Origin: an uncultured Planctomycetia bacterium
Lineage (GTDB): Bacteria > Omnitrophota > Gorgyraeia > 2-02-FULL-51-18 > JAGOUK01
Reading direction: 5' to 3'
Assembly (NCBI GenBank): GCA_964430735.1
Contig: CAYSFB010000009.1
Location: 5,492 to 69,491 of the forward strand
DNA length: 64,000 nucleotides
Notes under the pieces: model-generated
What the model was told of the DNA's origin: nothing
Databases searched by the model: none
The model's input: the letters and a program-made list of their open reading frames with translations, nothing else
Position numbers and translations under genes: made by a program
Shown here: positions 8,666-63,935 of the stretch, piece by piece
Numbering within the stretch: position 1 is the stretch's first letter
Layout of the letters: every line of letters starts with the position of its first letter

Positions 8666-8699
8666 TTTGATAAATGAAAGTTTAAATACGGGCGGGTTG

Positions 8700-11275: not shown

Positions 11276-12209
11276 ACGCCTCAAATGGAATGGGGCTGTT
11301 TGGGTCGGTTTTCTGTCGCTTGTTCTTGCTGCCGCATCCGCTTTTGCTTCCGAAGTGGCTCCGGCTTCTTCCGATTCGGCCGCGGGCGTGATCTTGGCCG
11401 GGGACAAGTTGAACATCCGGGTGTTCCGCGAAGAGGAGTTGACCGGCGTTTGGCACGGATCTTCAGTGGGTTACTCGATCGACGACGCTGGCGATCTGAC
11501 ATTCCCGATGGTGGGGACCATCCATGCCGCCGGTATGAAGATCGAAGAGCTTCAGAAAAATCTCACTCAGCTGCTCGACCAATTCATCGTGAATCCGCAG
11601 GTGAGCATCAGCTTTTATGAAAAAGAAACAAAGGCGAAGGTGAGCGTGATGGGACAGGTGGCGAGGACCGGAAATTATGACTATGTGCCCGGAATGACCA
11701 TTATGCAGCTCATCGCGGAAGCTGGAGGATTTTTGAAGCCCGAACCGTCCGCCGCGGTTTCGGCCCAGTCCCCGGATGTCAGCCGCATTCAGATCACCCG
11801 GCAAGGAGTAGGCGCGTCCGAGAGTGTCCGGATCGTGGACACCCAAGCGATCATGGACGGCCAGTCGCCGGACGTGCCGCTGGAGCCGGCGGATCTCGTG
11901 GTCGTTCCGATCCGTCAAAACCACCTGTCCGGAGACGCTACGGCCTCCGGTTTTGCCTCGGTCCTGGGTCAGGTCAATATGCCGGGCAATTATGAGATCG
12001 CCAAATCCGGAACGTTGGTCCGGCTGATCTCGGATGCCCGTGGATTCACACGGTTGGCGGCTCAGGACCGGGTGATGCTGACGCGCACTTCCGGTGATTC
12101 CGGAAAATCAGCCATGCGCGTGAACGTGACGGCGATCATGAACGGGAAGGCGGAGGACTTGGTCCTCATGCCGGGCGATGTGATCTATGTACCCGAATCG
12201 GAGTTTTAA
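11265..12209 (+). CDS. Polysaccharide export protein, Wza/SLBB family
   Basis: Signal peptide; Poly_export/SLBB-like blocks (MPGNYEIAKSG, PGDVIYVPES). Confidence 0.7.
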   Translation: MSVKRLKWNGAVWVGFLSLVLAAASAFASEVAPASSDSAAGVILAGDKLNIRVFREEELTGVWHGSSVGYSIDDAGDLTFPMVGTIHAAGMKIEELQKNLTQLLDQFIVNPQVSISFYEKETKAKVSVMGQVARTGNYDYVPGMTIMQLIAEAGGFLKPEPSAAVSAQSPDVSRIQITRQGVGASESVRIVDTQAIMDGQSPDVPLEPADLVVVPIRQNHLSGDATASGFASVLGQVNMPGNYEIAKSGTLVRLISDARGFTRLAAQDRVMLTRTSGDSGKSAMRVNVTAIMNGKAEDLVLMPGDVIYVPESEF

Positions 12210-12213
12210 CAAA

Positions 12214-14097: not shown

Positions 14098-14115
14098 CCT
14101 CCCCCTGAAGCCGTC

Positions 14116-41239: not shown

Positions 41240-42700
41240 TCAGCGAATCAAGCGGTCGACGGCTTCCGCCGCCAGCGTGAGGACGGGGGCCGGGAAGACG
41301 CCGAGAACGACGATGCCGGCCATCGAGACGCAGAGGAAGAAGCGCTGGGAGAGGCTGACCGCCAATGCGGGTTCGCCTTCTGCCGCGACTGCGGGGCGGC
41401 CGTACACGGCCTTGATCACGCCGAAGTAATAGTAGATCGAAACGATCACGCTCAGGAGGCCGATGACGGCCAGCCAGATGAGGCCCGCGTCGACCGCGCA
41501 GGACAGGACGTAGAATTTGCCGAAGAAGCCGGCCAGGGGCGGGAGCCCGGCCAGGGAGCCCATGGCGACCAGCAGCGCCGCGGCCATGAGCGGCGAGCGG
41601 CGGCTCAGGCCTGCGTAGTCCTGGATTTTTTCGATGCCCAGCTGGGCGGAGATCCAGACGACGACGAGGAAGGCCGCCGCCGTGTTGAAGAGATAACCGG
41701 CGAGGTACACGAGCATGGCCGGACCGCCGCCGTGCGGAAGCGCTGCGAGGCCGATGAGCAGGTAGCCCGCATGGCTGATGGACGAGTAGGCGAGCAGGCG
41801 TTTGATGTTCTTCTGGTTCAGGGCGCCCAGATTGCCGTACAGGACGGTGGCCGCGGCCACGACGGCCAGGATGGGCAGCAGGAAGTCCTGGATCGGCGCA
41901 AAGACGGTCAGGAGCAGGCGCGTGAGCGCGGCGAAGCCGGTCGCCTTGGACGCCAGTGCCAGGAAGGCCGAGATGGGAGCGGGCGCGCCCTCGTACACGT
42001 CCGGAACCCAGATATGAAAGGGAAACGCCGCAATCTTGAAGAACATCGCGATGAGGACGAGCACCGCTCCGAAGACGAAGGCCGCCGGAGGCTGGGCTTG
42101 CGCCTGAACTGCCGCCACGATCGCGGGGAAGGCCGTCTGGCCGGTCGCGCCGTAGACGTAGCTGAGACCGAAGACGAGCAGCGCCGTGGACAGGGCTCCC
42201 AGCACGAGGTATTTGACGCCGGCTTCGATCGACCGCTCGTCGTCGCGCAGGTAGGCCGTGATGATGTAGAGCGAGACGGAGAGCGTTTCGAGCGCGACGA
42301 AGAACAGCAGGAATTCATTGGCTGAGGCCAGGATGCTCATGCCGGTGAGCGCCAGCAGGATGAGGACGACGAATTCCGACCGTCCGCGCTTGATCTTTTG
42401 GTCGTATTGTCCGGCCATGTGCAGGACGAAGATGCCGGATGTCAGGAACAGTGCCTTGAAGCAGAACGAAAGGCCGTCCTGGACGAAGCTGCCGCCGAAC
42501 GCGCTGCCGAACACGCCCCAGCTGGACGCGAGCAGGCCCAGAATGATGACGAGGCCGACCAGCGCGATCCGGGTGAGCGCCCGTCCGCGGTTCACCGAGG
42601 CGGGCAGCAGCATGTCCGCCAAAAGGCCGATGACCGCCAAGGCGCCCAGGCCGAGTTCCGTTTTGAAGAGACCGAGGGTGGTAAAAAGTTCAGCCGTCAT
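41240..42700 (-). CDS. nuoN: NADH-quinone oxidoreductase subunit N
   Basis: 486 aa, ~14 TM antiporter-like subunit; directly follows nuoM on the minus strand. Confidence 0.85.
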   Translation of the reverse strand: MTAELFTTLGLFKTELGLGALAVIGLLADMLLPASVNRGRALTRIALVGLVIILGLLASSWGVFGSAFGGSFVQDGLSFCFKALFLTSGIFVLHMAGQYDQKIKRGRSEFVVLILLALTGMSILASANEFLLFFVALETLSVSLYIITAYLRDDERSIEAGVKYLVLGALSTALLVFGLSYVYGATGQTAFPAIVAAVQAQAQPPAAFVFGAVLVLIAMFFKIAAFPFHIWVPDVYEGAPAPISAFLALASKATGFAALTRLLLTVFAPIQDFLLPILAVVAAATVLYGNLGALNQKNIKRLLAYSSISHAGYLLIGLAALPHGGGPAMLVYLAGYLFNTAAAFLVVVWISAQLGIEKIQDYAGLSRRSPLMAAALLVAMGSLAGLPPLAGFFGKFYVLSCAVDAGLIWLAVIGLLSVIVSIYYYFGVIKAVYGRPAVAAEGEPALAVSLSQRFFLCVSMAGIVVLGVFPAPVLTLAAEAVDRLIR

Positions 42701-44173
42701 TTATTGGTACCGCGCCAGAACGGCAGCCGTGCCGGACTGCACCGCCGCCAACAGGAGGTTGGGAAACACGCCGGCCGCGATCAGAACGGCCAGCAGGAAC
42801 AATAAAGGAAGTTTGTCGAGGCCGCGCGCGTCCCGGACGTCGGCGCAGGCGGCGTTGATCGGACCCTGGGTGACCGAGCGCACCATCTTGAGCATATAAC
42901 CGGCCGTGATGACCATGCCGGAGATCGCCGCGATCGTCGGCAGGGGGTAGCGGTCCCACGCGCCGAACAGCACCAGCACTTCGCCGACGAACGGCGCGAA
43001 GCCCGGCACGCTCGCCGATGCGAGCGCCGCCATCACAAACAGAGTCGCGATAAAAGGAACACTGCGTCCGATGCCGCCCCAGTCTTCGAGACGCGCCTTG
43101 CCGGTCTGATCCACGAGGTAGCCTACGACGGCGAAGCTGAGCGCCGCCAGGACGCCGTGGGCGAACATGTAGAGCACCGCGCCGTTCAGTCCGGCCGGCG
43201 TCAGCGCGGCCAATCCGAGGAGGATGAGGCTCAAGTGGCTGCAGCTGGAGTAGCCGAGCACCTGCCGCATGTCCTTTTGGGCAAACGCCGCCAAGCCGCA
43301 ATAAACGAGATTCGCCGCCGCGAGCGCCGCGAGCCAGGGCATCCAGAGCCGCGCGCCGTCGGGCATGAGCGTGATGGCGAGGCGGATGATGAGGAAGGCG
43401 CCGAGCTTTTTCACAATCCCCGCATGGAGCATGGAGACGGACGACGGGGCGGACGCATAACCGATCGGTGTCCAGGTGTGCAGCGGCCAGACGGTGAGGA
43501 TCAGCCCGAAGCCCAGGACCAGGACCGGGAAGGCCCATGTTTGGAACGCGGCGGGCAGCGGGTTCGCGTGCAGCGCCGATTCGATGGCGACGAAGTCAAA
43601 CGTTTGAAGCCCGGTCTGCCAGTACAGCCCCAGGATGGCGAAAAGCGCCAGCATCGCGCCCACGGTGAGCAGCACTGCCAGCTTCATGCTCGCGTAGCCC
43701 TTGTCGCCCGAGCCCCAAACCGCGATGAGCGGGAAGATCGGGATGAGCGCGCATTCGTAGAAGAAGTACATGAAGAAAATATTGAGCGATGACAGAACGC
43801 CGAAACAGCCCGCGATGAGCAGGAGGTAGAACACGAGGAATTCCTTGAGCCGGTCGGTCACCCGGTTGGCGACGCAGACGCCGGCGAGCGCGCAGACGCC
43901 GGCGAGCACGAGCAGAACCGCCGCGATACCGTCCACGCCGACGTGGTAGCTGATGCCGAGCTGGGGAATCCAGTCGAACTTTTGAACAAATTGATAGCCG
44001 CCGGCCGACCGGTCGTAGCGCACGAAGGCCGTCACGGCTGCGGCGAACGCGATTGCGGCGGAGGCGAGCGAGATGCTCTGAAGCAGGCGTCGGGCGCCTT
44101 TGGGAACGGCCAAAAGCAGCGCCGCGCCGGCGAGAGGAGCCAGGAGCGCGAGGGTGAGGATTCCGTCCGTCAT
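42701..44173 (-). CDS. nuoM: NADH-quinone oxidoreductase subunit M
   Basis: 490 aa Mrp antiporter-like subunit. Confidence 0.85.
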   Translation of the reverse strand: MTDGILTLALLAPLAGAALLLAVPKGARRLLQSISLASAAIAFAAAVTAFVRYDRSAGGYQFVQKFDWIPQLGISYHVGVDGIAAVLLVLAGVCALAGVCVANRVTDRLKEFLVFYLLLIAGCFGVLSSLNIFFMYFFYECALIPIFPLIAVWGSGDKGYASMKLAVLLTVGAMLALFAILGLYWQTGLQTFDFVAIESALHANPLPAAFQTWAFPVLVLGFGLILTVWPLHTWTPIGYASAPSSVSMLHAGIVKKLGAFLIIRLAITLMPDGARLWMPWLAALAAANLVYCGLAAFAQKDMRQVLGYSSCSHLSLILLGLAALTPAGLNGAVLYMFAHGVLAALSFAVVGYLVDQTGKARLEDWGGIGRSVPFIATLFVMAALASASVPGFAPFVGEVLVLFGAWDRYPLPTIAAISGMVITAGYMLKMVRSVTQGPINAACADVRDARGLDKLPLLFLLAVLIAAGVFPNLLLAAVQSGTAAVLARYQ

Positions 44174-46062
44174 CAGAAGCCCTTCACCGCGGTGTAGACG
44201 ATCATTCCGAGGAGACCCAGCGTGAAGACGAGGGCGTAGTTGGCGACACGGCCGGTTTGCAGACGGCTGACCACGGCGCCCGTTTCGCGCACGGCGTCGC
44301 CGGTGAAGTTGACCAGGCCCTTGATGAGCACGTTGTTGTCAAAGCGCGCCAGCAGACCGGCGACAAACGTTTGGAAAATGTTGCCAAGCGCTCCGAAGAG
44401 ATGGTCGAGGTAGTACTTTTGGACGAGGGTCCGGTAGAAGAAGCCGGGGAGTTTGGCGATCGGGTCCTGGGCGGTCTTGAGCCGCGCGTAGAGCAGCGTG
44501 CCGAGGCCGATGCCCGCGACCGCCGCCGCCGTGGCCAGGACGGGGACGATGTGTCCGCCCGCATGCCCGGAGTCCGCATGTTCTCCGGCCAGGAATTCTG
44601 GAATGCCGATGAAGCCGCCGATGATCGAAAAAACGGAGAGGACGAGGAGAGGCAGGAGCATCACGTAAGGCGCTTCATGCGTCTCCTGCGCGTGGCCGTG
44701 TCCGTGCTTTTTGGCGCGGTCGGCGCCCAGGACCGCGACCCAGACCAGCCGCGTCATGTAAAAAGCCGTGAGGAAGGCCGTCGCCCAGCCCGTCCAGAAG
44801 ATCACCGGGTGATGTCCGTACGCGAGCGCCAGGATCGCGTCCTTGGAAAAGAACCCGGCCAGCGGCCAGATCCCGCAGAGCGCGAGCATGCCGATCAGGA
44901 ACGTGACGGCGGTGACCGGCATTTTTTTGATCACGGAGCCCATTTCCCAGATGTTCTGGGTATGCAGTCCGTGGATGATGGCGCCGGCACCGAGGAAGAG
45001 AAGCGCCTTGAAGAACGCATGCGTCGTCAGATGGAACATGCCGGTCGCGGCGTTTCCGAGGCCGACGGCGACGGCCATGTAGCCCAGCTGGCTGACGGTG
45101 GAGTAGGCGAGGATTTTTTTAATATCGTTCTGAACGACCGCGAGACCCGCCGCGAGCACCGCGGTGATGCTGCCGATGACGGCGATGGTCTGCATCGCAT
45201 CGGGCGAAAGGCCGATGAGGAAGAACATGCGCGCCATGAGATAGATGCCCGCCGCGACCATCGTCGCCGCGTGGATGAGCGCGCTCACCGGCGTCGGGCC
45301 TTCCATCGCGTCCGGCAGCCAGACGTACAGGGGGAATTGAGCCGATTTGCCGGCGACGCCGCAAAAAATGAGGAGAACCGCGACCAGGAGCGCGCCCGGA
45401 AGGATGGCCCCGTCCACCAGCGCCTGCGGGATCACCGCTTCAAGCTCGTGGAAATTGAGCGTCCGCGCCGCGCCGGAGCCGGACAGTTTCCACAGAAGCA
45501 GGATGCCGGCGAGGAAGCCGAAGTCGGCGACGCGGTTCACGAGGAAGGCCTTGTTGCCGGCGTCGGCCGCCGAGGGCTTTTCGAACCAGAAGCTGATGAG
45601 GAGGTACGAGCTCACCGCGACGAGCTCCCAGAACACGAAGAGCATGAGGAAGTTGGTCGACACCACGATGCCGATCATCGAAAAAGCGAACAGCGACAGC
45701 GACGCAAAAAAGCGCGCAAAGCTCTTGTCGCCGTGCATGTAGCCGACCGAGTACAGGAAGATGCAGCTGCCGACGCCGGCGACGACCAGGAGCATCAGAA
45801 TGGAGAGCGGGTCGATCAGGAAGCCGAGCTGGACCGGCAGGGATCCGGCCTGGAACCAAAGGTAATTGACCTCGAGCGGAAGTTCGATCTTGTGCTGAAG
45901 CGAGCCGATGAAAAGGTTCGCGATGAGACCCAGCGACGTCAGGATGCCGCCGAGCGAAACGGCCGCGGCGATCTTGGGTGCCTTGAGCAAGAACAGCGTG
46001 ATCAGGACCGCGGAGGCGAGCGGCGCGAGCAGGATGATCCAGAGGTGGAGGGGATCTACCAT
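44173..46062 (-). CDS. nuoL: NADH-quinone oxidoreductase subunit L
   Basis: About 630 aa antiporter-like subunit with the long C-terminal horizontal helix. Start placed at MVDPLHLWIILLAPL (46062), overlapping the nuoK stop by 7 nt; the ORF track's longer extension is rejected. Confidence 0.85.
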   Translation of the reverse strand: MVDPLHLWIILLAPLASAVLITLFLLKAPKIAAAVSLGGILTSLGLIANLFIGSLQHKIELPLEVNYLWFQAGSLPVQLGFLIDPLSILMLLVVAGVGSCIFLYSVGYMHGDKSFARFFASLSLFAFSMIGIVVSTNFLMLFVFWELVAVSSYLLISFWFEKPSAADAGNKAFLVNRVADFGFLAGILLLWKLSGSGAARTLNFHELEAVIPQALVDGAILPGALLVAVLLIFCGVAGKSAQFPLYVWLPDAMEGPTPVSALIHAATMVAAGIYLMARMFFLIGLSPDAMQTIAVIGSITAVLAAGLAVVQNDIKKILAYSTVSQLGYMAVAVGLGNAATGMFHLTTHAFFKALLFLGAGAIIHGLHTQNIWEMGSVIKKMPVTAVTFLIGMLALCGIWPLAGFFSKDAILALAYGHHPVIFWTGWATAFLTAFYMTRLVWVAVLGADRAKKHGHGHAQETHEAPYVMLLPLLVLSVFSIIGGFIGIPEFLAGEHADSGHAGGHIVPVLATAAAVAGIGLGTLLYARLKTAQDPIAKLPGFFYRTLVQKYYLDHLFGALGNIFQTFVAGLLARFDNNVLIKGLVNFTGDAVRETGAVVSRLQTGRVANYALVFTLGLLGMIVYTAVKGF

Positions 46063-46391
46063 TTGAGCGTTTCCACGGATTCGGTCGAGACGGATTTTTT
46101 CTTGCGGAAGAGCAGGACGACGATCGCCAGGCCCACTGTGACTTCCGCCGCCGCGACGATCATCGTGAAGAACACCATGACTTGTCCCGTCAGGTTGCCC
46201 CAATAAGAGGAGAAGGCCACAAAAGAAAGGTTGGCGGCGTTCAGGATAAGCTCGATCGACAGAAGGATCATCAGGATGTTGCGCCGGGTCAGGAGACCAT
46301 AGAGGCCGATCGCGAACAGGACGGCCGAGACAGTCAGGTAATGGTGCAGCCCGACCTGGAGACAGGCGGCGTTGAGGGGGCAGGACGTCAT
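46056..46391 (-). CDS. nuoK: NADH-quinone oxidoreductase subunit K
   Basis: 111 aa, 3 TM; HYLTVSAVLFAIGLYGLLTRRNILMILLSIELILNAANL. Confidence 0.9.
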   Translation of the reverse strand: MTSCPLNAACLQVGLHHYLTVSAVLFAIGLYGLLTRRNILMILLSIELILNAANLSFVAFSSYWGNLTGQVMVFFTMIVAAAEVTVGLAIVVLLFRKKKSVSTESVETLKW

Positions 46392-46879
46392 TGGGAGTCC
46401 TTTTTGGCCAGCACGACGATGCTGGTCACCGCTGCGAGGATGAGCAGCGACGTCAGTTCAAAGGGAAGCGCGAACTTTTTAAACAGCTCAAGTCCGAGGT
46501 TTTCGGCGACGCCGTGAACGGCCGGCATCCGGGGGGCCTCGACGGCGCGGATCACCGGAACGACGGCCGCCAGGAACACGGCCCCCGCTCCGACGGCGGC
46601 CGTCTGGATCAGCCAGCCGCCGCCTTTGACGGCGTTCATCTGCTGGGTGTCCATGAGCATGACGATAAAGAGGAAGAGCACGAGGATGGCGCCGGCGTAG
46701 ACCATGACCTGAACCACCGCGACCAGGAAGGCGTTGAGGAGGACGAAGAGGCCGGCCGTGAAGCACATGACGAGGACGAGGCAAAGGACGCAATAAACCG
46801 CCGACCGCGACCGCACCACGCCGACCCCCGCGATCAGCGCCCCCAATGCAAAGATGTAGAAGAGAACATTCTCGAGCAT
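46388..46879 (-). CDS. nuoJ: NADH-quinone oxidoreductase subunit J
   Basis: 163 aa, 5 TM; position upstream of nuoK with ATGA overlap. Confidence 0.85.
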   Translation of the reverse strand: MLENVLFYIFALGALIAGVGVVRSRSAVYCVLCLVLVMCFTAGLFVLLNAFLVAVVQVMVYAGAILVLFLFIVMLMDTQQMNAVKGGGWLIQTAAVGAGAVFLAAVVPVIRAVEAPRMPAVHGVAENLGLELFKKFALPFELTSLLILAAVTSIVVLAKKDSQ

Positions 46880-46928
46880 CGTGTAGTCTTTAGAATTCTC
46901 TGGGGTGGACTGTGCAAAAACTTTTCAG

Positions 46929-47030
46929 TCTTCGGCAAAAAGGTCCCGGATGCGAGGCGCGACAAGCGCCGCGCACTCTACAGTGCGCAAGCGCGAAGCA
47001 ACGAAGCAGACGGGGCCTTTTTGCCGAAGA
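46929..47030 (-). ncRNA. Second copy of the ~100-nt structured hairpin element, in the 3' flank of tRNA-Ser(GGA) and the 5' leader of nuoJKLMN
   Basis: Reverse complement aligns to 8566..8665 (cttcggcaaaaaggccccgtctgcttcgttgcttcgcgcttgcgcactgtagagtgcgcgg...cgggacctttttgccgaag). Outer and inner stems retained with compensatory changes. Confidence 0.55.
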
Positions 47031-47031
47031 C

Positions 47032-47121
47032 TGGCGGAGAGACAGGGATTCGAACCCTGGAAACGGTTTCCCGTTTACACGCTTTCCAAGCGTGCTCCTT
47101 AAACCACTCGGACATCTCTCC
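47032..47121 (-). tRNA. tRNA-Ser (anticodon GGA)
   Basis: Reverse complement ggagagatgtccgagtggtttaaggagcacgcttGGAaagcgtg...ccctgtctctccgcca; long variable arm; paralogous to the tRNA-Ser at 8472. Confidence 0.9.
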
Positions 47122-47186: not shown

Positions 47187-47516
47187 TTATCGGGGTCTGG
47201 AGTTCTGGAAGTCCTGCCACTCGCGGAGACGGCGCTGGGCGTCGAGCGCGTCCCGCTCCCGCTCCAGCCGTTTCATCTGGACAAACTGGAACGCGCGGTT
47301 GCCGATCTCCTCCAATGCATCCGTATCGAGGCCGGCGACCGGAGTCGCGCCGAGGATGCGGGCGGCCTCGTCCGGATCTTCGTCCAGGGCGTCCTGAATA
47401 TTCTGAAGGGCTTCCTGCCGCCGCTCGTCTGAAGCTTCGTCACCGGCCATCGCGCGGCCGGGCAGGCATGAGACAAGCGCCAGCAAAATCCAAAAGGGGA
47501 GAGGCCGGTTTTTCAT
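47187..47516 (-). CDS. Small secreted acidic protein (109 aa), hypothetical
   Basis: Signal peptide MKNRPLPFWILLALVSCLPGRAMA, then a charged low-complexity region. The ORF track's N-extension overlapping the upstream gene is rejected. Confidence 0.4.
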   Translation of the reverse strand: MKNRPLPFWILLALVSCLPGRAMAGDEASDERRQEALQNIQDALDEDPDEAARILGATPVAGLDTDALEEIGNRAFQFVQMKRLERERDALDAQRRLREWQDFQNSRPR

Positions 47517-47526
47517 CAGGACTATT

Positions 47527-48369
47527 CTACACCCTTTTGATCCGGACCCGCGTCTGAAGGGCGGACTGCGCGGAGCCTCGGAAGCTGCCGATGACCGGGG
47601 AGACCTGTTCAGGGGCATAAGCTGCCGCAATGGCCGCATAGCTGTCCGTGACGGCCAGGCCCGAGGTGGGATCGAACCCGCGCCAGCCCCCGCCTTCGAC
47701 ATAAACTTCGGCCCATGCGTGGAGTTCGTTTTCGGGCGTTCCTGGATCCCCCTCAAAATAACCGCTGACAAACCGGGCGGCCAGCCCCTGGGCCCGGCAG
47801 CACTCCATGAAGAATACCGTCAGGTCCCGGCAGGCCCCGCGCCGGTCTTCGAGGACCTTCAAAGCCGTCCAGGGCGCCCCGTCCGCGCGGTGGATGACCT
47901 GAAAAGCGGCGGCAATCGACCGGCACAGCTCCGGAAGAAACGCGATGACGGACGGACCGGTCCGCGCCGCGATCTCTTGTGAAAAAGCCGCGACCTGCGG
48001 AGCGATGACGCTCAGCCCTTCGAGGTAAGGCCTGAGAACGGCCGCGGTGGTCGCGGCGTAGGGGGTCTGAAGCTTGGAAAAAGCCGGATCCGCTGCGTAA
48101 TCAAAGGGATTGGACCGGTCGATGTCGATCCGACTGACCGCGCAGATCCGCAGCGAAGTCGCTCCTCCGCCGAACCAGACCCGGACCGCGTCATTGTCCA
48201 GCGGATCGATGATATCGGCGCGGAGCCTCGGAGCCGGGTCGACGAGAAGATCAAACGCGAGCAGCTTTTGGCTGCGGTTCTCGCGCGGCTTCAGATAAAG
48301 CGTGTGAGGTTCGAGGGAAACGGGCTGGGAATAGCGATATTCGAGTTCGTGCCGGATCTCAAGCCGCAT
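47527..48369 (-). CDS. Transglutaminase-like cysteine peptidase family protein
   Basis: Cys-His-Asp core: GACRDLTVFFMECCRAQGLAARFVSGY...HAWAEVYVEGGGWRGFDPT. Confidence 0.75.
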   Translation of the reverse strand: MRLEIRHELEYRYSQPVSLEPHTLYLKPRENRSQKLLAFDLLVDPAPRLRADIIDPLDNDAVRVWFGGGATSLRICAVSRIDIDRSNPFDYAADPAFSKLQTPYAATTAAVLRPYLEGLSVIAPQVAAFSQEIAARTGPSVIAFLPELCRSIAAAFQVIHRADGAPWTALKVLEDRRGACRDLTVFFMECCRAQGLAARFVSGYFEGDPGTPENELHAWAEVYVEGGGWRGFDPTSGLAVTDSYAAIAAAYAPEQVSPVIGSFRGSAQSALQTRVRIKRV

Positions 48370-49093
48370 GCGGAGGGAGCTTGTCGAGGACTTTGTTCAT
48401 CCATCCGCCCGGCAGACGCGGGACGGCCTCGCGAATGAGCTTCTGCCATTGGACGGAGAGGTCCTGGATCTCTTCTTTTTCGTAGCGTTCTTCGACGAGT
48501 TTGTAACTGTTGTTCCGGTACGCGACCACGTCGATCGGATAGTCGACGTCGACGGCGCAGGTGATGGTCGCGTTGAACGCGAGGAAGCCGACCTTGAGCG
48601 CGAAGCCGAGATCGGACGAATATTGGATGGTGCGTTCGAGGATGGGTTTGCCGTAGCCGGATTCGCCGATGATGCAGAACGGAGTCGACTCGCCGATCTC
48701 GACCCAATTGCCGGCTGGATAAATCATATAGAGCCGATGCTCGGTGTCGGATTCGAGCTGCCCGCCGACGAGCGCGTGCAGATTGAAGGAAAGACCCGCC
48801 GCTTCGAGCGCTTCGCGGTCTTCGACCGCCACGCGCCGGATCTGGGAGGCGAACGCGTTGACGGCCTTGTACAGATGCGAATAACCGTCGCTCTCCTGGA
48901 CCACTTCCTCAAAATACGTGAGCGCCTTGTCGCGCGCCGCCCGCAGGCCCGACGTCATCACGAAAAACGAATGCTTGCCGTGCTGGTGAACGCTCACTTT
49001 TTTGGCGGTGATGCGTTCGGTTCCCGATGTGATCCGCGTATCCGCGATGCCGATCAGGCCTTCCTTGGTCTTCATGCCCAGGCAAAAAGTCAT
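48359..49093 (-). CDS. Anbu (ancestral beta-subunit) proteasome-like Ntn-hydrolase
   Basis: 244 aa; N-terminus MTFCLGMKTKEGLIGIADTRITSG typical of Anbu; genomic context of ATP-grasp/alpha-E/transglutaminase. Confidence 0.65.
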   Translation of the reverse strand: MTFCLGMKTKEGLIGIADTRITSGTERITAKKVSVHQHGKHSFFVMTSGLRAARDKALTYFEEVVQESDGYSHLYKAVNAFASQIRRVAVEDREALEAAGLSFNLHALVGGQLESDTEHRLYMIYPAGNWVEIGESTPFCIIGESGYGKPILERTIQYSSDLGFALKVGFLAFNATITCAVDVDYPIDVVAYRNNSYKLVEERYEKEEIQDLSVQWQKLIREAVPRLPGGWMNKVLDKLPPHAA

Positions 49094-49100
49094 TTTTTCC

Positions 49101-50123
49101 TCACTCGTTTCTGTTGCCCGCCGCCGACGCCGGCGTCAGGGTCATCTCTTCCATCGAGGAGGGATCCGGCGCGGGCAGCGGCGCAAAATAAGCCGCGTAC
49201 ATGCTGTTGTTGATCGTCGAGATCTCGGACTGGATCTCGTCCAAAAATTCGTGGAGGCCTTTTTTAACGATATCATAAACGCTCATGGATTCAAGCCGCG
49301 CGCAGAGACGGCTGACCAGTTCCATCGGCGGATCCTGCCGGTCGGCCGCGAGCGCCAGGTGTCCGAGCGATTCGCGGGCTCGGCGCACGCAGGAATAAAC
49401 CGAGCGCGGGAAGTCGGGATTGAGGACGATGAAGTCGATCACGTGCGCGTGATGAATCTCGTGCCACAGACGGCGGTACATTTCCAGACCGCTGACCGAT
49501 TTGAGCAAGGCCGCCCACAGGATGTCGTCGTGGGGCGTGCCGACATGCTCGACCGACGGCAGGAGGATGAAGTATTTGACGTCTAGAATGCGCGAGCTCT
49601 GGTCCGCGCGTTCGAGGAGATTGCCGATGCGGCCGAAGTGCCAGCCCTCGTCGTGCGACAGCGACGTGTCCATGATTCCGGTAAAAAGCTGGCACGATCT
49701 CCGGACCCGCGAATAAAAGTTGAACAGGTCCTCGGACTTTCCGGTCTTGAGCAGACGCGTTCTGGATGCGTCTCGGACGAAGAGATAGAGTACGTTGAGC
49801 TCATTCCACATTTCGGACGTGATCGCCTCGCGGATCGACCGCGCGTTTTCGCGCGAGTGGTACACGCAGCTCAGGATCGAGTCGGGGTTGCGCTCGTCGA
49901 AGGTCAAAAAGTCGAGTACGTTCGGCGCGGTGGCCGTTTTGTACAACGATGAGAACAGCTCGTGCCCGCCGGTCGTTTTGACGATCGGGTCCCATTGGTG
50001 GTTTTCGTCGCCGGGCGCGTCGATGCTCAGGAACAGGTTCACATCGACGAGACGCGCGATATTTTCGGCACGTTCCCGGTAGCGCTGCATCCAGTAAAGA
50101 GAGTCGGCCACGCGGCTCAGCAT
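49101..50123 (-). CDS. Alpha-E domain protein (DUF403)
   Basis: Starts MLSRVADSLYWMQRYRERAENIARLVDV, a hallmark alpha-E N-terminus; overlaps the ATP-grasp stop by 7 nt. ORF track start at 50294 is rejected. Confidence 0.7.
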   Translation of the reverse strand: MLSRVADSLYWMQRYRERAENIARLVDVNLFLSIDAPGDENHQWDPIVKTTGGHELFSSLYKTATAPNVLDFLTFDERNPDSILSCVYHSRENARSIREAITSEMWNELNVLYLFVRDASRTRLLKTGKSEDLFNFYSRVRRSCQLFTGIMDTSLSHDEGWHFGRIGNLLERADQSSRILDVKYFILLPSVEHVGTPHDDILWAALLKSVSGLEMYRRLWHEIHHAHVIDFIVLNPDFPRSVYSCVRRARESLGHLALAADRQDPPMELVSRLCARLESMSVYDIVKKGLHEFLDEIQSEISTINNSMYAAYFAPLPAPDPSSMEEMTLTPASAAGNRNE

Positions 50124-51589
50124 GCGTCCGCCTCCCGCCGCAGCACCCAGGTGTCTTTGCAGCCGCCGCCCTGGGACGAGTTCACGACGAGCGATCCTTT
50201 TTTGAGCGCGACGCGCGTGAGGCCTCCCGGCATGACGTAAATGTCCTTGCCGTAGAGGATGTACGGCCGCAGGTCGACGTGGCGCCCTTCGCATTGCTTG
50301 CCGATCATCGTCGGCACGCGCGAGAGGGACAGCGTCGGCTGGGCGAGGTAGTCGCGCGGCGATTTTTTGATCAGCTCCGCGAAGGTCTCGCGCTCCTTCT
50401 TGGTCGACATCGGCCCGATCAGCATCCCGTATCCGCCGGCCTCGTTGGCCGGCTTCACGACGAGCTTTTCGAGATTCTGCAGGACGTATTCGCGTTCTTT
50501 TTCGTTGTAACAGAGATAAGTTTCCACGTTCGGCAGGATCGGCTCCTCGCCGAGATAGAACCGGATCATTTCCGGGACGAACTTGTATACGACCTTGTCG
50601 TCGGCGATGCCGGTGCCGGGCGCGTTGGCGAGCGACACCCGGCCCGCGCGGTACACGTCCATGAGTCCGGCCACGCCGAGCATCGAATCGCGGCGGAAGA
50701 CTTTGGGGTCGAGGAATTGGTCGTCGATGCGGCGGTAGATCACGTCGACGCGCTGGAGGCCGCGCGTCGTCTTCATGTGGACGTACCCGTCCTGCACGGT
50801 GAGGTCCTTGCCTTCGACCAGCTCCGCACCCATGCGCTGGGCGAGGAAGGAGTGTTCAAAATAGGCGGAGTTGGCGATACCGGGCGTCAGGACGACCGCG
50901 GTCGGCTCGGAACGGCCGGGCGGCGCGATGTAGCGCAGCATCGCGAGCAGCTGTTCGGGGTAATTCTCGACCGGCTCGATGGCCTGATTGCGGAAGAAAC
51001 GCGGAAACGCCTTTTTGACGATCGCGCGGTTCTCCAGGACGTACGAAACGCCCGACGGACAGCGCAGATTGTCTTCGAGCACGTACACGTTCCCGTCGCT
51101 GTGGCGGATGAGGTCGGTTCCCGTGATATGGCACCAGATGCCTTGAGGCGGGTAAAGGCCGACACAGGCCTTGAGGAAGTGCTTGCCCGACAGAATGATC
51201 TCGGCCGGGATGACCTTGTTCTTGAGGATCTTCTGCTGGCCGTAAATGTCCTTGAGGAATTCATTGAGCGCGCGGATGCGCTGCTTGAGGCCGCGGTCGA
51301 TCCGGCTCCATTCGTTCTTTTCCACGAGGCGGGGGATGATGTCGAAGGGGAAGATGCGGTCGTATTCGCCCTTGCCGTCGTTGACGGTAAACGTGATGCC
51401 GGAGTTGAGGAAGGACTTTTCGGCGGCCTGCTGGAAGTTGAGCAGCTCCGCCTTGGAGAGGGCATTCAGGCCGTCGATGAGCGGCCGCACGCACTTGCGC
51501 GGCACTCCGTCGGGGCCGAAGAATTCGTCGTAGAATCCCTGTCCCTGATAGTCCTGGAAGATCGCTTGGGGTTTGGCAGTTTGCGTCAT
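50117..51589 (-). CDS. Circularly permuted ATP-grasp type 2 protein (DUF404/DUF407)
   Basis: 490 aa; N-terminus MTQTAKPQAIFQDYQGQGFYDEFFGPDGVPR and internal ATP-grasp blocks. Confidence 0.75.
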   Translation of the reverse strand: MTQTAKPQAIFQDYQGQGFYDEFFGPDGVPRKCVRPLIDGLNALSKAELLNFQQAAEKSFLNSGITFTVNDGKGEYDRIFPFDIIPRLVEKNEWSRIDRGLKQRIRALNEFLKDIYGQQKILKNKVIPAEIILSGKHFLKACVGLYPPQGIWCHITGTDLIRHSDGNVYVLEDNLRCPSGVSYVLENRAIVKKAFPRFFRNQAIEPVENYPEQLLAMLRYIAPPGRSEPTAVVLTPGIANSAYFEHSFLAQRMGAELVEGKDLTVQDGYVHMKTTRGLQRVDVIYRRIDDQFLDPKVFRRDSMLGVAGLMDVYRAGRVSLANAPGTGIADDKVVYKFVPEMIRFYLGEEPILPNVETYLCYNEKEREYVLQNLEKLVVKPANEAGGYGMLIGPMSTKKERETFAELIKKSPRDYLAQPTLSLSRVPTMIGKQCEGRHVDLRPYILYGKDIYVMPGGLTRVALKKGSLVVNSSQGGGCKDTWVLRREADAC

Positions 51590-51671
51590 CTTAAGGATGA
51601 AGCATACCGCCGGAGCGTTACAAGCGTGTTGCGGGAAGGTTAACAGGGGAAGAGGGATGTTGTCGAAAAAG

Positions 51672-51745
51672 TGCGCCCGTCAGGAGTCGAACCTGAAACC
51701 TTCTGATCCGTAGTCAGATGCTCTATCCAATTGAGCTACGGGCGC
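51672..51745 (-). tRNA. tRNA-Arg (anticodon ACG)
   Basis: Reverse complement gcgcccgtagctcaattggatagagcatctgactACGgatcagaaggtttcaggttcgactcctgacgggcgca. Confidence 0.9.
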
Positions 51746-51769
51746 AAAAACAGGAAGCGTAATATACCA

Positions 51770-51829
51770 AAAAATTCGGGACGTGTCTCGAATTTCATCT
51801 ATAATAGCGGGCAGCATTAAGGAGCATGA
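51770..51829 (+). promoter_or_regulatory. Putative dnaX promoter/leader (TATAAT at ~51803) and RBS AAGGAG
   Basis: catctataatagc -10-like hexamer about 30 nt upstream of the ATG; AAGGAG 7 nt upstream of the start. Confidence 0.35.
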
Positions 51830-54973: not shown

Positions 54974-55053
54974 TTGAATCCAGCCGGTGTTCGGCTATAC
55001 TTTTTGCCTGTCCGACACCTGCCCCGCCCGAGGGGCATTTATAAAAAGTTTAT

Positions 55054-55129
55054 TCCCAGGTAGCTCAGTTGGTAGAGCGGCTCGCTGTTAACGAGCATGT
55101 CGTAGGTTCAAGTCCTACCCTGGGAGCCA
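55054..55129 (+). tRNA. tRNA-Asn (anticodon GUU)
   Basis: tcccaggtagctcagttggtagagcggctcgctGTTaacgagcatgtcgtaggttcaagtcctaccctgggagcca. Confidence 0.9.
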
Positions 55130-55145
55130 TTGACTCCTCTCCTCA

Positions 55146-55196
55146 TGCAGGGGAAAGCGTTGGTTGGAGAAATCCAAACAACGCTTTTTTTGTACC
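55146..55196 (+). terminator. Terminator hairpin after tRNA-Asn
   Basis: agcgttggttgg-agaaat-ccaaacaacgct followed by a T7 run. Confidence 0.55.
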
Positions 55197-55558
55197 TTCA
55201 AATACCCGACCGCCCCGCTTTAGTATCGACAATAGCTTCCAAGGGAACCATAATCGGCCGCAACGTTAACTTGGAGGGGAATGATGAATGCGTAGCTGCC
55301 GGAGTAGACAACGATCCGTTCATTACAGGAACAATCACCTTTTACATACCATGCGGAGAGACTCATTCCGAAAAACATGAAGTCAAAGGCCCGTCCCGGG
55401 CGCGGATGACCCTCAAATTAGAACCAATTCCCGTAATTGACCGAGAGCGCAGCCGCTTCCCGCGAGATCAGCCAGGCGCTGAGCTCCTCAACTGGAGGGA
55501 GTCATTATCGGAAATGAATACGTTAAACCAATTCGGGTTCACGTATTTTATGCTGTGA

Positions 55559-56308
55559 GTGAAAATGAGTTATGTGAAGACTTATAATACATCGATGAAT
55601 ATATTAAGGACCTTTAAGCATCTGTGCATCCGTACCGGAATTCTCCCGCGCCCCGGTGTCCGACGAGTCCTTTCAGGGCCCAATAGCGGCATTGCCTTTC
55701 ACCTGGATCTTTCTTCCGAATTTCAATTTTACTCGGGTCTCGCCGAAGTTGAAAATCATCGCTGGATCGTAAAGTTATGCGGGGGAATCTCGACGGCTGC
55801 CGATGTCGGAGCCGCTTACGGCGAGCAGACACTTTTCCTCGTTAAAAAAACAGGGGCAAAAAAAGTATTCGCGGTTGAGCCGGGAACATTGCTTAATGCA
55901 AAACTGAAAGAAAATCTTCGCTTAAACGATCTTTTGGCAGGAGACCGGGTCGAGATCATTTCTAAATTTGTCGGCGACGAATCCAAGGGTTGCCTTTCAT
56001 TGGATGTTTTATTAAAGGAACAGCCGGAGCCTATTTTTATCAAGATGGATATTGAGGGCATGGAAGTCGAAGCGCTCAAAAGTTCTGCAAAAACGCTGGA
56101 TCGTTCCGATGTGCGTTGGCTGATCGAAGTGCACTCCAGAGAATTAGAATCAGCGGCGATTCAAATTTTTAGAAACTGCGGATATCAGGTCCAGGTGATC
56201 CCGCAGGCATTTTGGAGGTGTTTTTTGCCCGAGAATCGTACAAAAGATAATCGATGGATCGCATGCTATAAACCGGATTCTTTTAAATCAGAAAAATCTT
56301 CCGTTTAA
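55559..56308 (+). CDS. FkbM-family SAM-dependent methyltransferase
   Basis: Block DVGAAYGEQTLFLVKKTGAKKVFAVEPG, resembling a SAM-binding GxGxG region; ~250 aa. Confidence 0.55.
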   Translation: MKMSYVKTYNTSMNILRTFKHLCIRTGILPRPGVRRVLSGPNSGIAFHLDLSSEFQFYSGLAEVENHRWIVKLCGGISTAADVGAAYGEQTLFLVKKTGAKKVFAVEPGTLLNAKLKENLRLNDLLAGDRVEIISKFVGDESKGCLSLDVLLKEQPEPIFIKMDIEGMEVEALKSSAKTLDRSDVRWLIEVHSRELESAAIQIFRNCGYQVQVIPQAFWRCFLPENRTKDNRWIACYKPDSFKSEKSSV

Positions 56309-57853
56309 ATGGAACCCATAAAAGAAGCCGGCCTTTCAAAGAAAATCAGAGCCAGCGTCGAACTGCTCCGTTACCTGACGGATCATCCGGAGGTGTGGGT
56401 GGGTCTGGCGGCGGAGGATCGCGCGGAACTGGAAAAAGCAGCGGGGCAAATTGCCCGGCCTAGCCCCGAAGAGCTGCGTCTGCGGCGCCGGCACTACGTC
56501 AAAAGTCTCCGGAAAAAAAGCCTCCAGCAGGACCGCCAGGCCCGCGCGGCCACCGGCATCCGGGCGGCGCGCGACACACAGGTCTTTGAGGCGCCGGAAC
56601 GGTTGTTGGGAGTCGAGGCAGGAGCCCTGCTCCCGAACGGCCGGCTCAATTCCACGCGCAGCTGCTACATCTGCCATGCGGGGTATACCGAGCTTCACCA
56701 TTTTTACGATTCGATGTGCCAAAAATGCGGCGAGTTGAATTACAAGAAGCGTTTCCAGACGGCGGATCTGTCGGGCCAGGTCGCGCTCATCACCGGCTCG
56801 CGTCTCAAGATCGGATATCAGGCGGCGCTCATGATGCTGCGCGCCGGAGCGACCGTGATCGCGACGACGCGGTTTCCGGTCGATTCGGCGCTGCGGTACG
56901 CGCGCGAAAAGGACTTCGGGCAGTGGAAGGACCGGCTCCATATTTACGGACTCGATCTGCGGCATACGCCCAGTGTCGAAATCTTCTGCAACTACATCCA
57001 ACAGCGGTACGACCGTCTGGACATCCTGGTTAACAACGCGGCGCAGACCGTCCGGCGTCCCGCGGGTTTTTATGCGCACCTGATGGCCAACGAGCAGCTT
57101 CCGCTCTCCGACCTTCCGGAAGCGGCGCAGCAGCTGCTCCGCAAATACGACGACTGCAAGCGGGAGCTTGTTTCGTATTCGAATTCCAATCTGCAGCCCG
57201 TGGACGCCCTGGCCGTCAGCTGGATGGGGAAGGCCCCCGGCATCGGGCTCCGGGCCTCCGCGGCTCTTTCGCAGATCCCGTACCCGCACGACCATTCCCT
57301 CAAGGCCGACGAGGTGTTTCCCGTGGGCAAGCTCGACGCGGACCTTCAGCAGGTGGATTTGCGCAAAACGAACAGCTGGCGCCTGCGGCTGGGCGAGATC
57401 GAAACGGCCGAGATGTTCGAGCTGCAGCTGGTGAATGCCATCGCCCCGTTCGTTCTCTGCAACAAGCTGGAGCCGATGATGCGGCGGGATTTTACGGGAA
57501 AGAAGCACATGGTCAACGTCACCGCGATGGAAGGCAAATTCCATGCGACCAATAAGATCGACCGCCACCCCCACACCAATATGGCCAAGGCGGCTCTCAA
57601 CATGCTGACACATACCGCGGCCGGAAGTCTGGTGAAGCACGGCATCTACATGAACGCGGTCGATACCGGATGGGTGACCGACGAGGATCCCGCGCATCTT
57701 TCCAAGTTCAAGCAGGAAACGCATGACTTTCAGCCGCCGCTGGACATCGTGGATGGGGCGGCGCGCGTATGTGACCCCTTCTTCGACGGGATCAACACGG
57801 GCAAGCATTGGTGCGGCAAATTCTTAAAGGATTATTTTCCGACGGATTGGTAG
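56309..57853 (+). CDS. Short-chain dehydrogenase/reductase (SDR) with ~150-aa N-terminal extension
   Basis: [31 protein letters not shown] (TGxxxxIG Rossmann motif), NNAAQ block, catalytic Y/K region further downstream. Confidence 0.65.
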
Positions 57854-63764: not shown

Positions 63765-63791
63765 ACAACTGAATAGCGACGTTCCGGCACC

Positions 63792-63935
63792 TAGCCCCGG
63801 CTGCGGGGTGAGGTTTAATGAGGGAATCGGGTGTGAATCCCGAGCGGTCCCGCCACGGTAAGAGGCCTTTCGAGGCCTTAAGTCCGAATACCACCGGAGC
63901 GTTATAACGACCCCAATGCCACGGCAGATGGCAAG
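63792..63935 (+). promoter_or_regulatory. Cobalamin (B12) riboswitch
   Basis: Core matches the Cbl consensus TTAATGAGGGAATCGGGTGTGAATCCCGAGCGGTCCCGCCACGGTAAGAGG (cf. btuB leader AATAGGGAATCCAGTGCGAATCTGGAGCTGACGCGCAGCGGTAAGG). B12-box GCCACGG; followed by RBS AAGGAGCT and an ATG at 63943. Confidence 0.7.

Follow-up and report, generated by a model that had tools for sequence, protein, structure and literature searches.

In the window analyzed here, a 64,000-nucleotide stretch of DNA, four core genes are packed tightly on the minus strand between two tRNA genes. The first gene of the operon (51589..50117) encodes a 490-residue ATP-grasp protein of family PF14403. It is followed by genes for a 340-residue alpha-E protein (50123..49101; PF04168), a 244-residue Ntn hydrolase with the N-terminus MTFCLGMK and an Anbu-2 type pocket (49093..48359), and a 280-residue transglutaminase-like protein with Cys-His-Asp residues (48369..47527; PF08379 and PF01841). 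A small ORF on the same strand (47516..47187) encodes an acidic protein of 109 residues with a predicted signal-peptide-like N-terminus. The flanking tRNA genes, also on the minus strand, lie outside the system: tRNA-Arg(ACG) upstream (51671..51745; ARAGORN and Rfam RF00005, 70.3 bits), 81 nt ahead of the ATP-grasp start codon, and tRNA-Ser(GGA) downstream (47032..47121; ARAGORN and Rfam, 56.1 bits), 65 nt beyond the small ORF. A sigma-70-like site (51789..51761) is located upstream of tRNA-Arg. No gene for an AAA+ unfoldase adjoins the cluster, the neighbors being the tRNA genes, nuoJ and dnaX.

An initial annotation of this DNA had described a four-gene minus-strand cluster, and all of its ORFs were found in place. 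It had also described overlapping stops and starts, which holds for two of the three core junctions: the ATP-grasp and alpha-E genes share 7 nt (ATGCTGA), and the Anbu and transglutaminase-like genes share 11 nt. Between the alpha-E and Anbu genes, however, there is a spacer of 7 nt, and GAGG precedes the Anbu ATG. A further 10-nt spacer separates the transglutaminase-like gene from the small ORF.

The ATP-grasp protein matched PF14403 over the full model (1–374/374, E=7e-170) and PF04174 with E=8e-141 in the Pfam search, which bears out its earlier description as a circularly permuted type-2 ATP-grasp. A standard ATP-grasp of the glutathione or ribosomal-S6-modification type was also considered and rejected, the match to the circularly permuted type 2 extending over the whole model. 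The protein is a predicted carboxylate-amine ligase. Its nearest solved structure is PDB 3n6x (E=1.4e-156, residues 20–484), deposited as a 'putative glutathionylspermidine synthase', and this small-molecule synthetase annotation fits a metabolite substrate equally well as a protein. The ATP-grasp protein of the Yersinia bercovieri operon was reported to release phosphate from ATP (PMC6376114).

The alpha-E protein matched PF04168 over the full model (1–294/294, E=3e-94; Pfam search), in agreement with its earlier assignment to DUF403. A mechanical ORF list gave it 397 residues through an upstream extension into the ATP-grasp gene, whereas genes called independently on three metagenome contigs from this organism encode 340. 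Residues Y15, E17, R18, E20, E171 and R172 are invariant in 51 homologues and cover the ER motifs. No sequence relative was found in the PDB. The AF2 model is all-helical (pLDDT 89.9, pTM 0.87) and had no significant fold match in the PDB (best Foldseek E=0.45, TM ≤0.26). In the transglutaminase-like protein, matched by PF08379 (E=3e-19) and PF01841 (E=2e-16) in the Pfam search, the triad C180, H217 and D233 is kept in 96–100% of 46 operon-linked homologues, as expected of the Cys-His-Asp peptidase that had been proposed. Its weak PDB relative is 3isr, a 'putative cysteine protease' (E=1e-5).

All five matches of the 244-residue protein in a phmmer search of the PDB are Anbu entries (E 4e-33 to 2e-24). 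Foldseek ranks 1–31 for its AF2 model (pLDDT 89.6) are likewise all Anbu chains (E 1e-20, TM 0.70–0.90). The C-terminal helix of the model (residues 206–226 and 230–236) matches helix H5 of Anbu (PMC8665760). Thr1 comes directly after Met, and the protein has both D17 and K31. It is an Anbu-type Ntn hydrolase, as first annotated. That it could be an ordinary HslV or 20S beta subunit served by an AAA+ unfoldase encoded elsewhere, a reading to which the Pfam result lends itself (a 26-bit match to PF00227, the general Proteasome family, and nothing narrower), is effectively refuted and retains almost no probability, since every PDB sequence match is an Anbu, 20S beta subunits appear only after rank 31 and ten orders of magnitude weaker (E 1e-10), HslV is absent from the top 50, the propeptide is missing and the Anbu-specific helix present, and the gene sits inside an Anbu operon of overlapping genes. 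All of the initial family assignments were thus upheld by profile, sequence and fold searches, and from the family E-values the identity of the cluster is far beyond chance.

The S1 pocket of the Anbu protein is formed by I20, A29, T46, R50 and R53 and is lined with Arg. Fuchs et al. (2017; PMC5666114) described a basic S1 pocket for a second Anbu type, Anbu-2, and proposed an acidic cleavage specificity. An Arg-lined pocket of this kind is found in no solved structure. We compared 54 relatives carrying the motif GLRxxRD (the Anbu-2 set) with 29 Anbu-1 sequences. R50, R53, D17 and K31 are each present in 54/54 of the Arg-pocket set and Thr1 in 53/54, whereas L52 and T/S55 are each found in 29/29 of the Anbu-1 set. 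The pocket positions (20, 29, 46, 50 and 53) are numbered alike here and in the Anbu-2 of Fuchs et al., implying that both differ from Anbu-1 by identical indels; I20, A29 and R50 agree, the pocket is basic in both, and the relatives span the same range of phyla. Two differences were noted. The published pocket has R46 and T53, whereas this protein and 51/54 relatives, Cytophagales MAGs included, have T46 and R53. Furthermore, the Omnitrophota-like host lineage is not among the groups named for Anbu-2, which is known from Planctomycetes, Bacteroidetes, Verrucomicrobia and Deltaproteobacteria and was modeled for Cytophaga hutchinsonii (PMC5666114). We consider it nearly certain that the cluster is an Anbu-2 operon. 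Located on the chromosome, it represents the less-studied kind of a widespread bacterial operon, a known system and not a new one. Because R50 and R53 are invariant in the S1 pocket, cleavage after Glu or Asp is expected, and the Anbu-2 protein probably acts on acidic residues, judging from the alignment to Anbu-1 structures and the published homology model.

The order ATP-grasp, alpha-E, Anbu, transglutaminase is complete in 24/54 Arg-pocket loci and partial in 7 more, and was seen in 0/29 Anbu-1 loci, 19 of which have the order ATP-grasp, alpha-E, transglutaminase, Anbu. The former is the usual order for the Arg-pocket type and recurs in Omnitrophota, Acidobacteriota, Bacteroidota, Planctomycetota, Desulfobacterota and other phyla, in keeping with the conserved operon proposed earlier; Candidatus Omnitrophota MAGs are the closest named relatives for the operon genes. 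Our analysis shows what the four proteins are, that their catalytic residues are intact, that their genes are tightly packed and that this exact gene order recurs in many phyla. The Anbu-2 subtype and the rearranged gene order had escaped the initial annotation.

The Anbu-1 operon was reportedly recognized in Proteobacteria and Cyanobacteria by Valas and Bourne in 2008 and Iyer et al. in 2009. It shares with the present one the same four families and catalytic residues, the lack of an AAA+ partner, Thr1 directly after Met, and the C-terminal helix (structures 5lox, 5loy and 5nyf–5nyw). The two differ in gene order, grasp-alphaE-TGase-Anbu there and grasp-alphaE-Anbu-TGase here, and in the S1 pocket, T20/F30/T48/L52/T55 there and I20/A29/T46/R50/R53 here. 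The ATP-grasp protein is 50–57% identical to those of alphaproteobacterial Anbu-1 operons, whereas Anbu identity is just 25–37%. In Pa-Anbu, proteasome inhibitors were bound at Thr1 (PMC5666114). When purified Anbu-1 proteins were given standard proteasome substrates, among them Z-LLE-AMC with its acidic P1 residue, no peptidase activity was seen, and no stable complexes between operon proteins were detected (PMC6376114). On the physiological role, the reserve of the initial annotation is shared by the literature (PMC5666114, PMC6376114, PMC8665760); our literature search found no newer functional paper on the Anbu operon.

As a mechanism, we envisage a cytoplasmic module in which one enzyme makes amide bonds and two break them. 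The maker would be the circularly permuted ATP-grasp protein, teamed with the alpha-E protein, whose gene invariably neighbors the ATP-grasp gene and here overlaps it. A carboxylate would be activated as an acyl phosphate and joined to the amine of a peptide or protein, which would thereby gain a tag of one amino acid or a short peptide. Processing, removal or degradation of this product might then fall to the transglutaminase-like enzyme and to Anbu with its Thr1, and the predicted cleavage after Glu or Asp would point to an acidic substrate or an acidic ligated group. Ligase-plus-hydrolase tagging of this kind is offered tentatively, as a mechanism that may well prove wrong; taken together with the Anbu-2 operon identity, it forms our best overall explanation, in which our confidence is moderate.

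The Pup-proteasome system of Actinobacteria comprises the PafA ligase, the Dop depupylase and the 20S proteasome. The proposed tagging module would resemble it in logic, with an ATP-dependent carboxylate-amine ligase, a proteasome-family hydrolase and a de-conjugating enzyme. However, the ligases have unrelated folds (ATP-grasp here, glutamine-synthetase-like in PafA and Dop), the present cluster has no gene for a Pup-like protein, an AAA+ Mpa/ARC or an alpha subunit, and Anbu assembles into open, split rings where the 20S proteasome is a closed barrel (PMC5666114, PMC8665760). Phosphate release by the Y. bercovieri ATP-grasp protein and inhibitor binding by Pa-Anbu speak for the proposed mechanism. 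It counts against tagging that Fuchs et al. rate a role in peptide synthesis as less likely than plain protein degradation (PMC5666114), and so do the negative peptidase and complex results for Anbu-1 proteins.

The products could instead serve small-molecule amide metabolism in nitrogen storage or scavenging, which we regard as unlikely. The ATP-grasp enzyme would make a low-molecular-weight conjugate, for example a glutathionylspermidine-like compound or a gamma-glutamyl-amine, and the papain-fold transglutaminase-like protein and Anbu would be amidases. Escherichia coli glutathionylspermidine synthetase/amidase (Gss) similarly couples a synthetase of the circularly permuted ATP-grasp type to a Cys-His amidase with a papain fold, and a Gss-type name is attached to 3n6x; but the activities of Gss are fused in one protein, its amidase is a CHAP domain, it lacks alpha-E and Anbu partners, and the glutathione/spermidine tie of 3n6x comes from structural-genomics annotation, not assay. 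Across phyla, the ATP-grasp protein remains 50–57% identical and Anbu and the transglutaminase-like protein only 25–35%, as would fit a small substrate common to all. Also in favor, amides other than peptide bonds are cleaved by some Ntn hydrolases (PMC6376114), and the proteobacterial operon is among the most strongly induced genes in nitrogen limitation, under NtrC/sigma-54 control (PMC3235984, note added in proof; PMC5491218). On the other hand, Anbu oligomers are large, ring-like or helical, with many active sites, and bind peptide-type proteasome inhibitors (PMC5666114), which argues for polypeptide substrates. Moreover, no sigma-54 site was found upstream of the operon here, unlike the documented control in proteobacteria, and nothing in the window links it to nitrogen limitation.

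The tRNA genes on both sides had been taken as consistent with lateral mobility. The bracketing is real but lends mobility no support. Relatives with 75–90% identical Anbu proteins do hold the operon in quite different neighborhoods, although genome rearrangement could explain this equally well. A laterally acquired island at a tRNA gene is improbable. GC content is 0.58–0.65 inside the cluster and 0.57–0.66 outside, GC3 (0.74–0.86) is like that of the neighbors, no direct repeats of the tRNA 3' ends or other att-like flanking pair were found, and the interval between the tRNAs contains no ORF for an integrase or transposase. Moreover, the tRNAs are missing from relatives' loci: on L001, another contig from this organism, the small ORF is likewise followed by tRNA-Ser(GGA), which is absent from relatives L003, L005 and L006.

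The small protein, described earlier as secreted and acidic, does have an acidic pI (4.8 at full length, 4.5 when mature) and a putative signal sequence with a basic-hydrophobic-AxA pattern (MKNRPLPFWILLALVSCLPGRAMA), but it is not a general member of the operon. It had no match in Pfam, NCBIfam or PADLOC, and a search of 5.8 billion clustered proteins gave just two homologues (69% and 43% identity), both from the closest relatives, all sharing the core EALxNIQxAxDEDPxEAA and a C-terminal QNSR. These conserved features, and the position of the gene after the transglutaminase-like gene on the same strand both here (10 nt) and in relative L003 (21 nt), could point to a dedicated substrate or partner comparable to Pup or to a precursor peptide of ribosomal origin, and in the close loci L012 and L014 this place is taken by small signal-peptide proteins of no relation to it. 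Against such a role, which we consider highly improbable, stand the paucity of homologues, the lack of anything comparable downstream in most surveyed Arg-pocket loci, and the putative signal peptide itself, since the four enzymes lack one and depend on ATP in the cytoplasm. In addition, the homologue at L091 adjoins two-component and TonB-receptor genes, 55 nt from a divergent response-regulator gene, with no transglutaminase-like gene before it. The small gene is a lineage-specific fifth gene, probably co-transcribed with the other four.

The minus strand carries five genes between two tRNA genes, as read from the ORF list and the sequence. They encode a circularly permuted ATP-grasp protein (51589..50117, 490 aa), an alpha-E protein (50123..49101, 340 aa), an Anbu protein (49093..48359, 244 aa), a transglutaminase-like protein (48369..47527, 280 aa) and a small protein (47516..47187, 109 aa). 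The ORF list, the sequence and the profile searches agree on the four tightly packed genes of the families initially claimed. Overlapping stops and starts, also claimed, are found between the ATP-grasp and alpha-E genes (7 nt) and between the Anbu and transglutaminase-like genes (11 nt), but not between alpha-E and Anbu, which are separated by a 7-nt gap with GAGG preceding the Anbu ATG. Between the transglutaminase-like stop and the small ORF are 10 nt. A 397-aa alpha-E protein in the mechanical ORF list is an upstream extension into the ATP-grasp gene; we took the length to be 340 aa because three short metagenome contigs of this organism, annotated independently and carrying the same five genes, have this value.

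Pfam provides only a weak match of the 244-aa protein to the general Proteasome family (26 bits). Its identity as Anbu comes from a phmmer search against all PDB sequences, from fold comparison and from the operon context. The sequence search gave five matches over residues 2–229 (E 4e-33 to 2e-24), none of them HslV, BPH or a 20S subunit: one is a designed consensus Anbu, and the others are the Anbu proteins of Hyphomicrobium, Yersinia bercovieri and Pseudomonas aeruginosa. The AlphaFold2 model built with 40 homologues (pLDDT 89.6) has a proteasome-type sandwich and, as the Anbu-specific C-terminal helical extension H5, a long helix (206–226) and then a second one (230–236). Foldseek comparison of the model with the PDB placed Anbu chains at ranks 1–31 (E about 1e-20, TM 0.70–0.90, rmsd about 2 Å). 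The initial annotation had named a canonical HslV or 20S beta subunit as the competing assignment, and neither emerged from the PDB sequence or fold searches as the identity of this protein. Both were rejected, since the first 20S beta subunit stands at rank 32 (E about 1e-10), HslV is absent from the top 50 fold matches, and no AAA+ ATPase or alpha subunit is adjacent. No AAA+ unfoldase or other partner gene adjoins the cluster, the neighbours being the tRNAs, nuoJ and dnaX.

The protein begins MTFCLG, so that Thr1 directly follows the initiator Met with no propeptide, and it has D17 and the catalytic K31, the latter aligned with K32 of Anbu-1. Among 54 relatives of the same pocket type, Thr1 is present in 53 and D17 and K31 in all. 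A few such homologues (the sequences P0112 and P0119 and the locus L046) start with MS in place of MT, which would make Ser1 the N-terminal nucleophile.

Anbu proteins were divided into two types (Fuchs et al. 2017, PMC5666114). Anbu-1 is found in Proteobacteria, Cyanobacteria and Actinobacteria and has the S1 pocket T20/F30/T48/L52/S55 in the P. aeruginosa protein; Anbu-2 is found in Planctomycetes, Bacteroidetes, Verrucomicrobia and Deltaproteobacteria and in C. hutchinsonii has a basic pocket, I20-A29-R46-R50-T53, for which acidic specificity was proposed (PMC5666114). All five solved Anbu sequences have the Anbu-1 pocket. Alignment to the P. aeruginosa protein and the consensus design gave I20, A29, T46, R50 and R53 for the protein described here, which by this alignment has the basic S1 pocket of the Anbu-2 subtype. 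It shares with the C. hutchinsonii type both the basic character and the residue numbering, hence the same indels, but differs from the published pocket in that the residues at positions 46 and 53 are swapped (T46/R53 vs R46/T53). R50 and R53 are invariant in the 54 relatives with the GLRxxRD motif (Arg-pocket loci), and T46-R50-R53 occurs in 51 of them, including Cytophagales MAGs (Anbu N-termini of loci L013–L064), as against the published R46-R50-T53. Either PMC5666114 has the two positions 46 and 53 interchanged or C. hutchinsonii differs.

Gene order was surveyed in 80 loci, fetched at one genome per species and supplemented with plasmid and metagenome loci. The four genes were placed in each locus by tblastn and the pocket residues were scored. 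The Anbu-1 sample, defined by a GNLxxTQ-type motif, comprised 29 loci, mostly from Alphaproteobacteria, with L52 and T/S55 in every one. With G, E, A and T standing for ATP-grasp, alpha-E, Anbu and transglutaminase-like genes, the Arg-pocket loci have the order GEAT in 24 cases, GEA in 9, A alone in 10, T before A in 4, and EAT or AT in 7; transglutaminase-like genes were detected with the window protein at E <= 1e-4, and some of the short AT matches may be other transglutaminase-domain proteins. Anbu-1 loci have GETA (19) or A alone (10), and none has GEAT. It follows that the published "conserved order" of ATP-grasp, alphaE, transglutaminase, Anbu (PMC6376114) is that of Anbu-1 operons. In the comparison of synteny with other Anbu operons, called for initially, the order GEAT seen here is typical of the Arg-pocket type. 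An Arg-Arg pocket thus goes with Anbu before the transglutaminase-like gene and a Leu-Thr pocket with Anbu after it, a rule that could guide experiments. This link was not found stated in the literature examined, a body that excludes Iyer et al. 2009. At least 10 Arg-pocket Anbu genes (L026, L041, L044, L048, L050, L054–L061) stand alone or, as in L044 and L050, have their partners on the opposite strand, although the flanks covered reach 7 kb in either direction. Linkage to the operon is thus not universal for Anbu-2.

The ATP-grasp protein matches PF14403 (COG2308) over its full length (1–374/374, E=7e-170), not a standard glutathione- or ribosomal-S6-modification-type family. It belongs by this match to the circularly permuted type 2 family, the permuted topology being taken from the family definition. 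Its PDB match, 3n6x (E=1.4e-156), is a structural-genomics entry named "putative glutathionylspermidine synthase". The alpha-E (DUF403) assignment is confirmed by a full-length match to PF04168 (COG2307; 1–294/294, E=3e-94), by a confident all-helical AlphaFold2 model and by its two Glu-Arg motifs, E17-R18 and E171-R172, neither of which varies in 51 sequences. The PDB sequence search found no solved relative of alpha-E, nor did the fold comparison, where the best Foldseek match had an E of 0.45. PF08379 (N-domain) and PF01841 both match the transglutaminase-like protein clearly, and the claimed Cys-His-Asp triad is present in it and conserved among 46 operon-linked homologues (C180 96%, H217 100%, D233 100%). 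By these profiles and residues the protein is a member of the transglutaminase-like cysteine peptidase superfamily, and going by its sequence it may either hydrolyse or cross-link. None of the five proteins matched an NCBIfam profile.

The small protein has a typical N-terminal signal segment, as judged by its sequence, and an acidic mature part (pI 4.5) that is probably helical. In a search of 5.8 billion clustered proteins the sole match besides the protein itself was a homologue with 65% identity by BLASTP and 69% in a three-sequence alignment. A third homologue (43%) follows the transglutaminase-like gene in a relative's locus, L003. The three share a core, EALxNIQxAxDEDPxEAA, and a C-terminal QNSR, and the small ORF is therefore a real gene, probably co-transcribed here with the operon. 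The homologue at the locus L091 has no transglutaminase-like gene before it and adjoins two-component and TonB-receptor genes, types that also lie just beyond the homologue in L003. Elsewhere among the Arg-pocket loci this position is taken by unrelated small exported proteins or is empty, according to a scan that took the first downstream ORF in any frame and serves as a rough negative survey only, some loci being miscalled (in L003 it picked a 59-aa ORF and not the 119-aa homologue). The secreted acidic protein noted initially is thus present, acidic and signal-bearing; it is a lineage-specific neighbour and not a general or defining component of the operon. As to the partner peptide or small-ORF substrate sought nearby, the signal peptide argues against this protein being a substrate of cytoplasmic ATP-dependent enzymes.

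The Anbu operon is among the most widespread bacterial clusters built round a proteasome relative. It was defined in 2008–2009, and several crystal structures are available. The original prediction is that of Iyer et al. 2009, as related in PMC5666114 and PMC6376114. We found 5343 Anbu homologues at E <= 1e-5 among the candidates scored. The locus is of an already-known kind, since the operon, the structures and the Anbu-2 subtype were described before. It provides a clean, intact Anbu-2 example from an Omnitrophota-like uncultured bacterium and leaves the overall picture of the operon unchanged; nothing in it would surprise a specialist, and by itself it does not make the question of function easier to test.

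No function has been assigned to the Anbu operon (PMC6376114, PMC5666114, PMC8665760), and a focused literature search found no functional Anbu study after 2021. The Yersinia ATP-grasp protein hydrolyses ATP, and the operon proteins were not seen to form stable complexes with one another (PMC6376114). In Anbu-1, proteasome inhibitors bind at Thr1 and standard substrates are not cleaved (PMC5666114, PMC6376114). What is observed here is four families with intact active sites, tight coupling and conservation across phyla. Our tentative preference, held with low confidence, is for a system directed at peptides or proteins, in which the ATP-grasp and alpha-E proteins would act together as an ATP-dependent carboxylate-amine ligase, and the two hydrolases, Anbu and the transglutaminase-like protein, would process, remove or degrade the ligase product. 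In Anbu-2, R50 and R53 would steer the hydrolysis to acidic residues.

The main rival, which we hold to be only slightly less likely, is a small-molecule synthetase/amidase system tied to nitrogen economy; much of the probability is assigned to neither. It would accord with the annotation of 3n6x and with the ATP-grasp protein being 50–57% identical between phyla, compared with 25–35% for Anbu and the transglutaminase-like protein. Regulation of the operon by nitrogen limitation in Proteobacteria speaks for it as well, with NtrC/sigma-54 control in Burkholderia and induction in Pseudomonas putida (PMC5491218, PMC3235984). The present operon differs from these cases in that a scan found no sigma-54 promoter upstream of it, and sites in the whole window were fewer than expected by chance.

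Quite improbable, in our estimate, is a more specific scheme in which the Anbu-2 arrangement is a variant of the operon with a function of its own, tuned to acidic residues. Here the placement of Anbu before the transglutaminase-like gene, with translational coupling of the two, would go together with the two invariant S1 arginines. The ATP-grasp/alpha-E pair would add Glu/Asp residues or tails to target proteins, Anbu-2 would recognise those tails and cut there, and in this lineage the small exported acidic protein might serve as client or regulator. If true, bacteria would have here a tag-and-trim or tag-and-degrade pathway with no relation to pupylation. The biochemistry to date has all been on Anbu-1, with no activity, and Anbu-2 with acidic or Glu-tailed substrates is an untried route. 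A known anti-phage defence system was rejected, as no PADLOC model matched any of the five proteins.

Among named relatives, those closest to the Anbu protein are from Candidatus Omnitrophota MAGs (81%, 80% and 75%), and that closest to alpha-E is likewise from a Candidatus Omnitrophota MAG (57%); Nitrospira is among the relatives of the Anbu/alpha-E proteins at about 61%. Short contigs from three related sequencing runs were the sole source of exact matches to the proteins. The operon lies between nuoJKLMN and dnaX-recR. The initial annotation took the tRNA genes as consistent with, but no proof of, lateral mobility. Both are real, tRNA-Arg(ACG) at 51671..51745 and tRNA-Ser(GGA) at 47032..47121 being called by ARAGORN and Rfam. 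No integrase ORF lies between them, no att-like direct repeats flank the cluster, and its GC (0.58–0.65) is at flank level. In relatives whose Anbu is 75–90% identical, the four genes keep this order but lie in unrelated neighbourhoods without tRNAs. The two tRNA genes thus bracket the operon in this genome only and give no sign of an island, and a tRNA-targeted genomic island was rejected as unlikely; relocation of the operon during evolution is evident. A low-GC patch at 55000..56500 (0.47–0.49 vs 0.60–0.66 around it), which starts exactly at tRNA-Asn(GTT) (55054..55129) and holds a 249-aa ORF (55559..56308), seems a better candidate for a tRNA-associated insertion than the Anbu cluster.

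A sigma-70-like site is located upstream of tRNA-Arg. No convincing terminator was found between the small ORF and tRNA-Ser, so read-through transcription may occur. Directly 3' of tRNA-Ser(GGA) and before nuoJ is an inverted repeat (46926..47033; 28-nt arms, 89% complementary, 52-nt loop) that may be a terminator or processing structure. Straight after tRNA-Ser, the minus strand (41240..46879) encodes nuoJ, nuoK, nuoL and two more large membrane-subunit ORFs, and the NADH dehydrogenase genes are therefore split here from the upstream nuo genes.

Elsewhere in the window, a CBS-GGDEF protein on the plus strand (8667..15525) is followed by a polysaccharide export cluster with porin-like, Wza-type exporter, Wzz/tyrosine-kinase-like and Bac_transf priming transferase proteins. 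A 489-aa and 314-aa pair within it (9806..12209), considered by size as a second ATP-grasp/alpha-E pair, was rejected as part of this porin/Wza-type cluster. A Bac_transf-type transferase directly adjoins the Anbu operon in L003, which points to rearrangement between the two genomes. A single 2605-aa ORF (38..7855, plus strand; GC3 0.70) has no Pfam domain above threshold, AAA_16 matching only at 22 bits. A cobalamin riboswitch (RF00174, 51.5 bits) is located on the plus strand at the window end (63768..63912).
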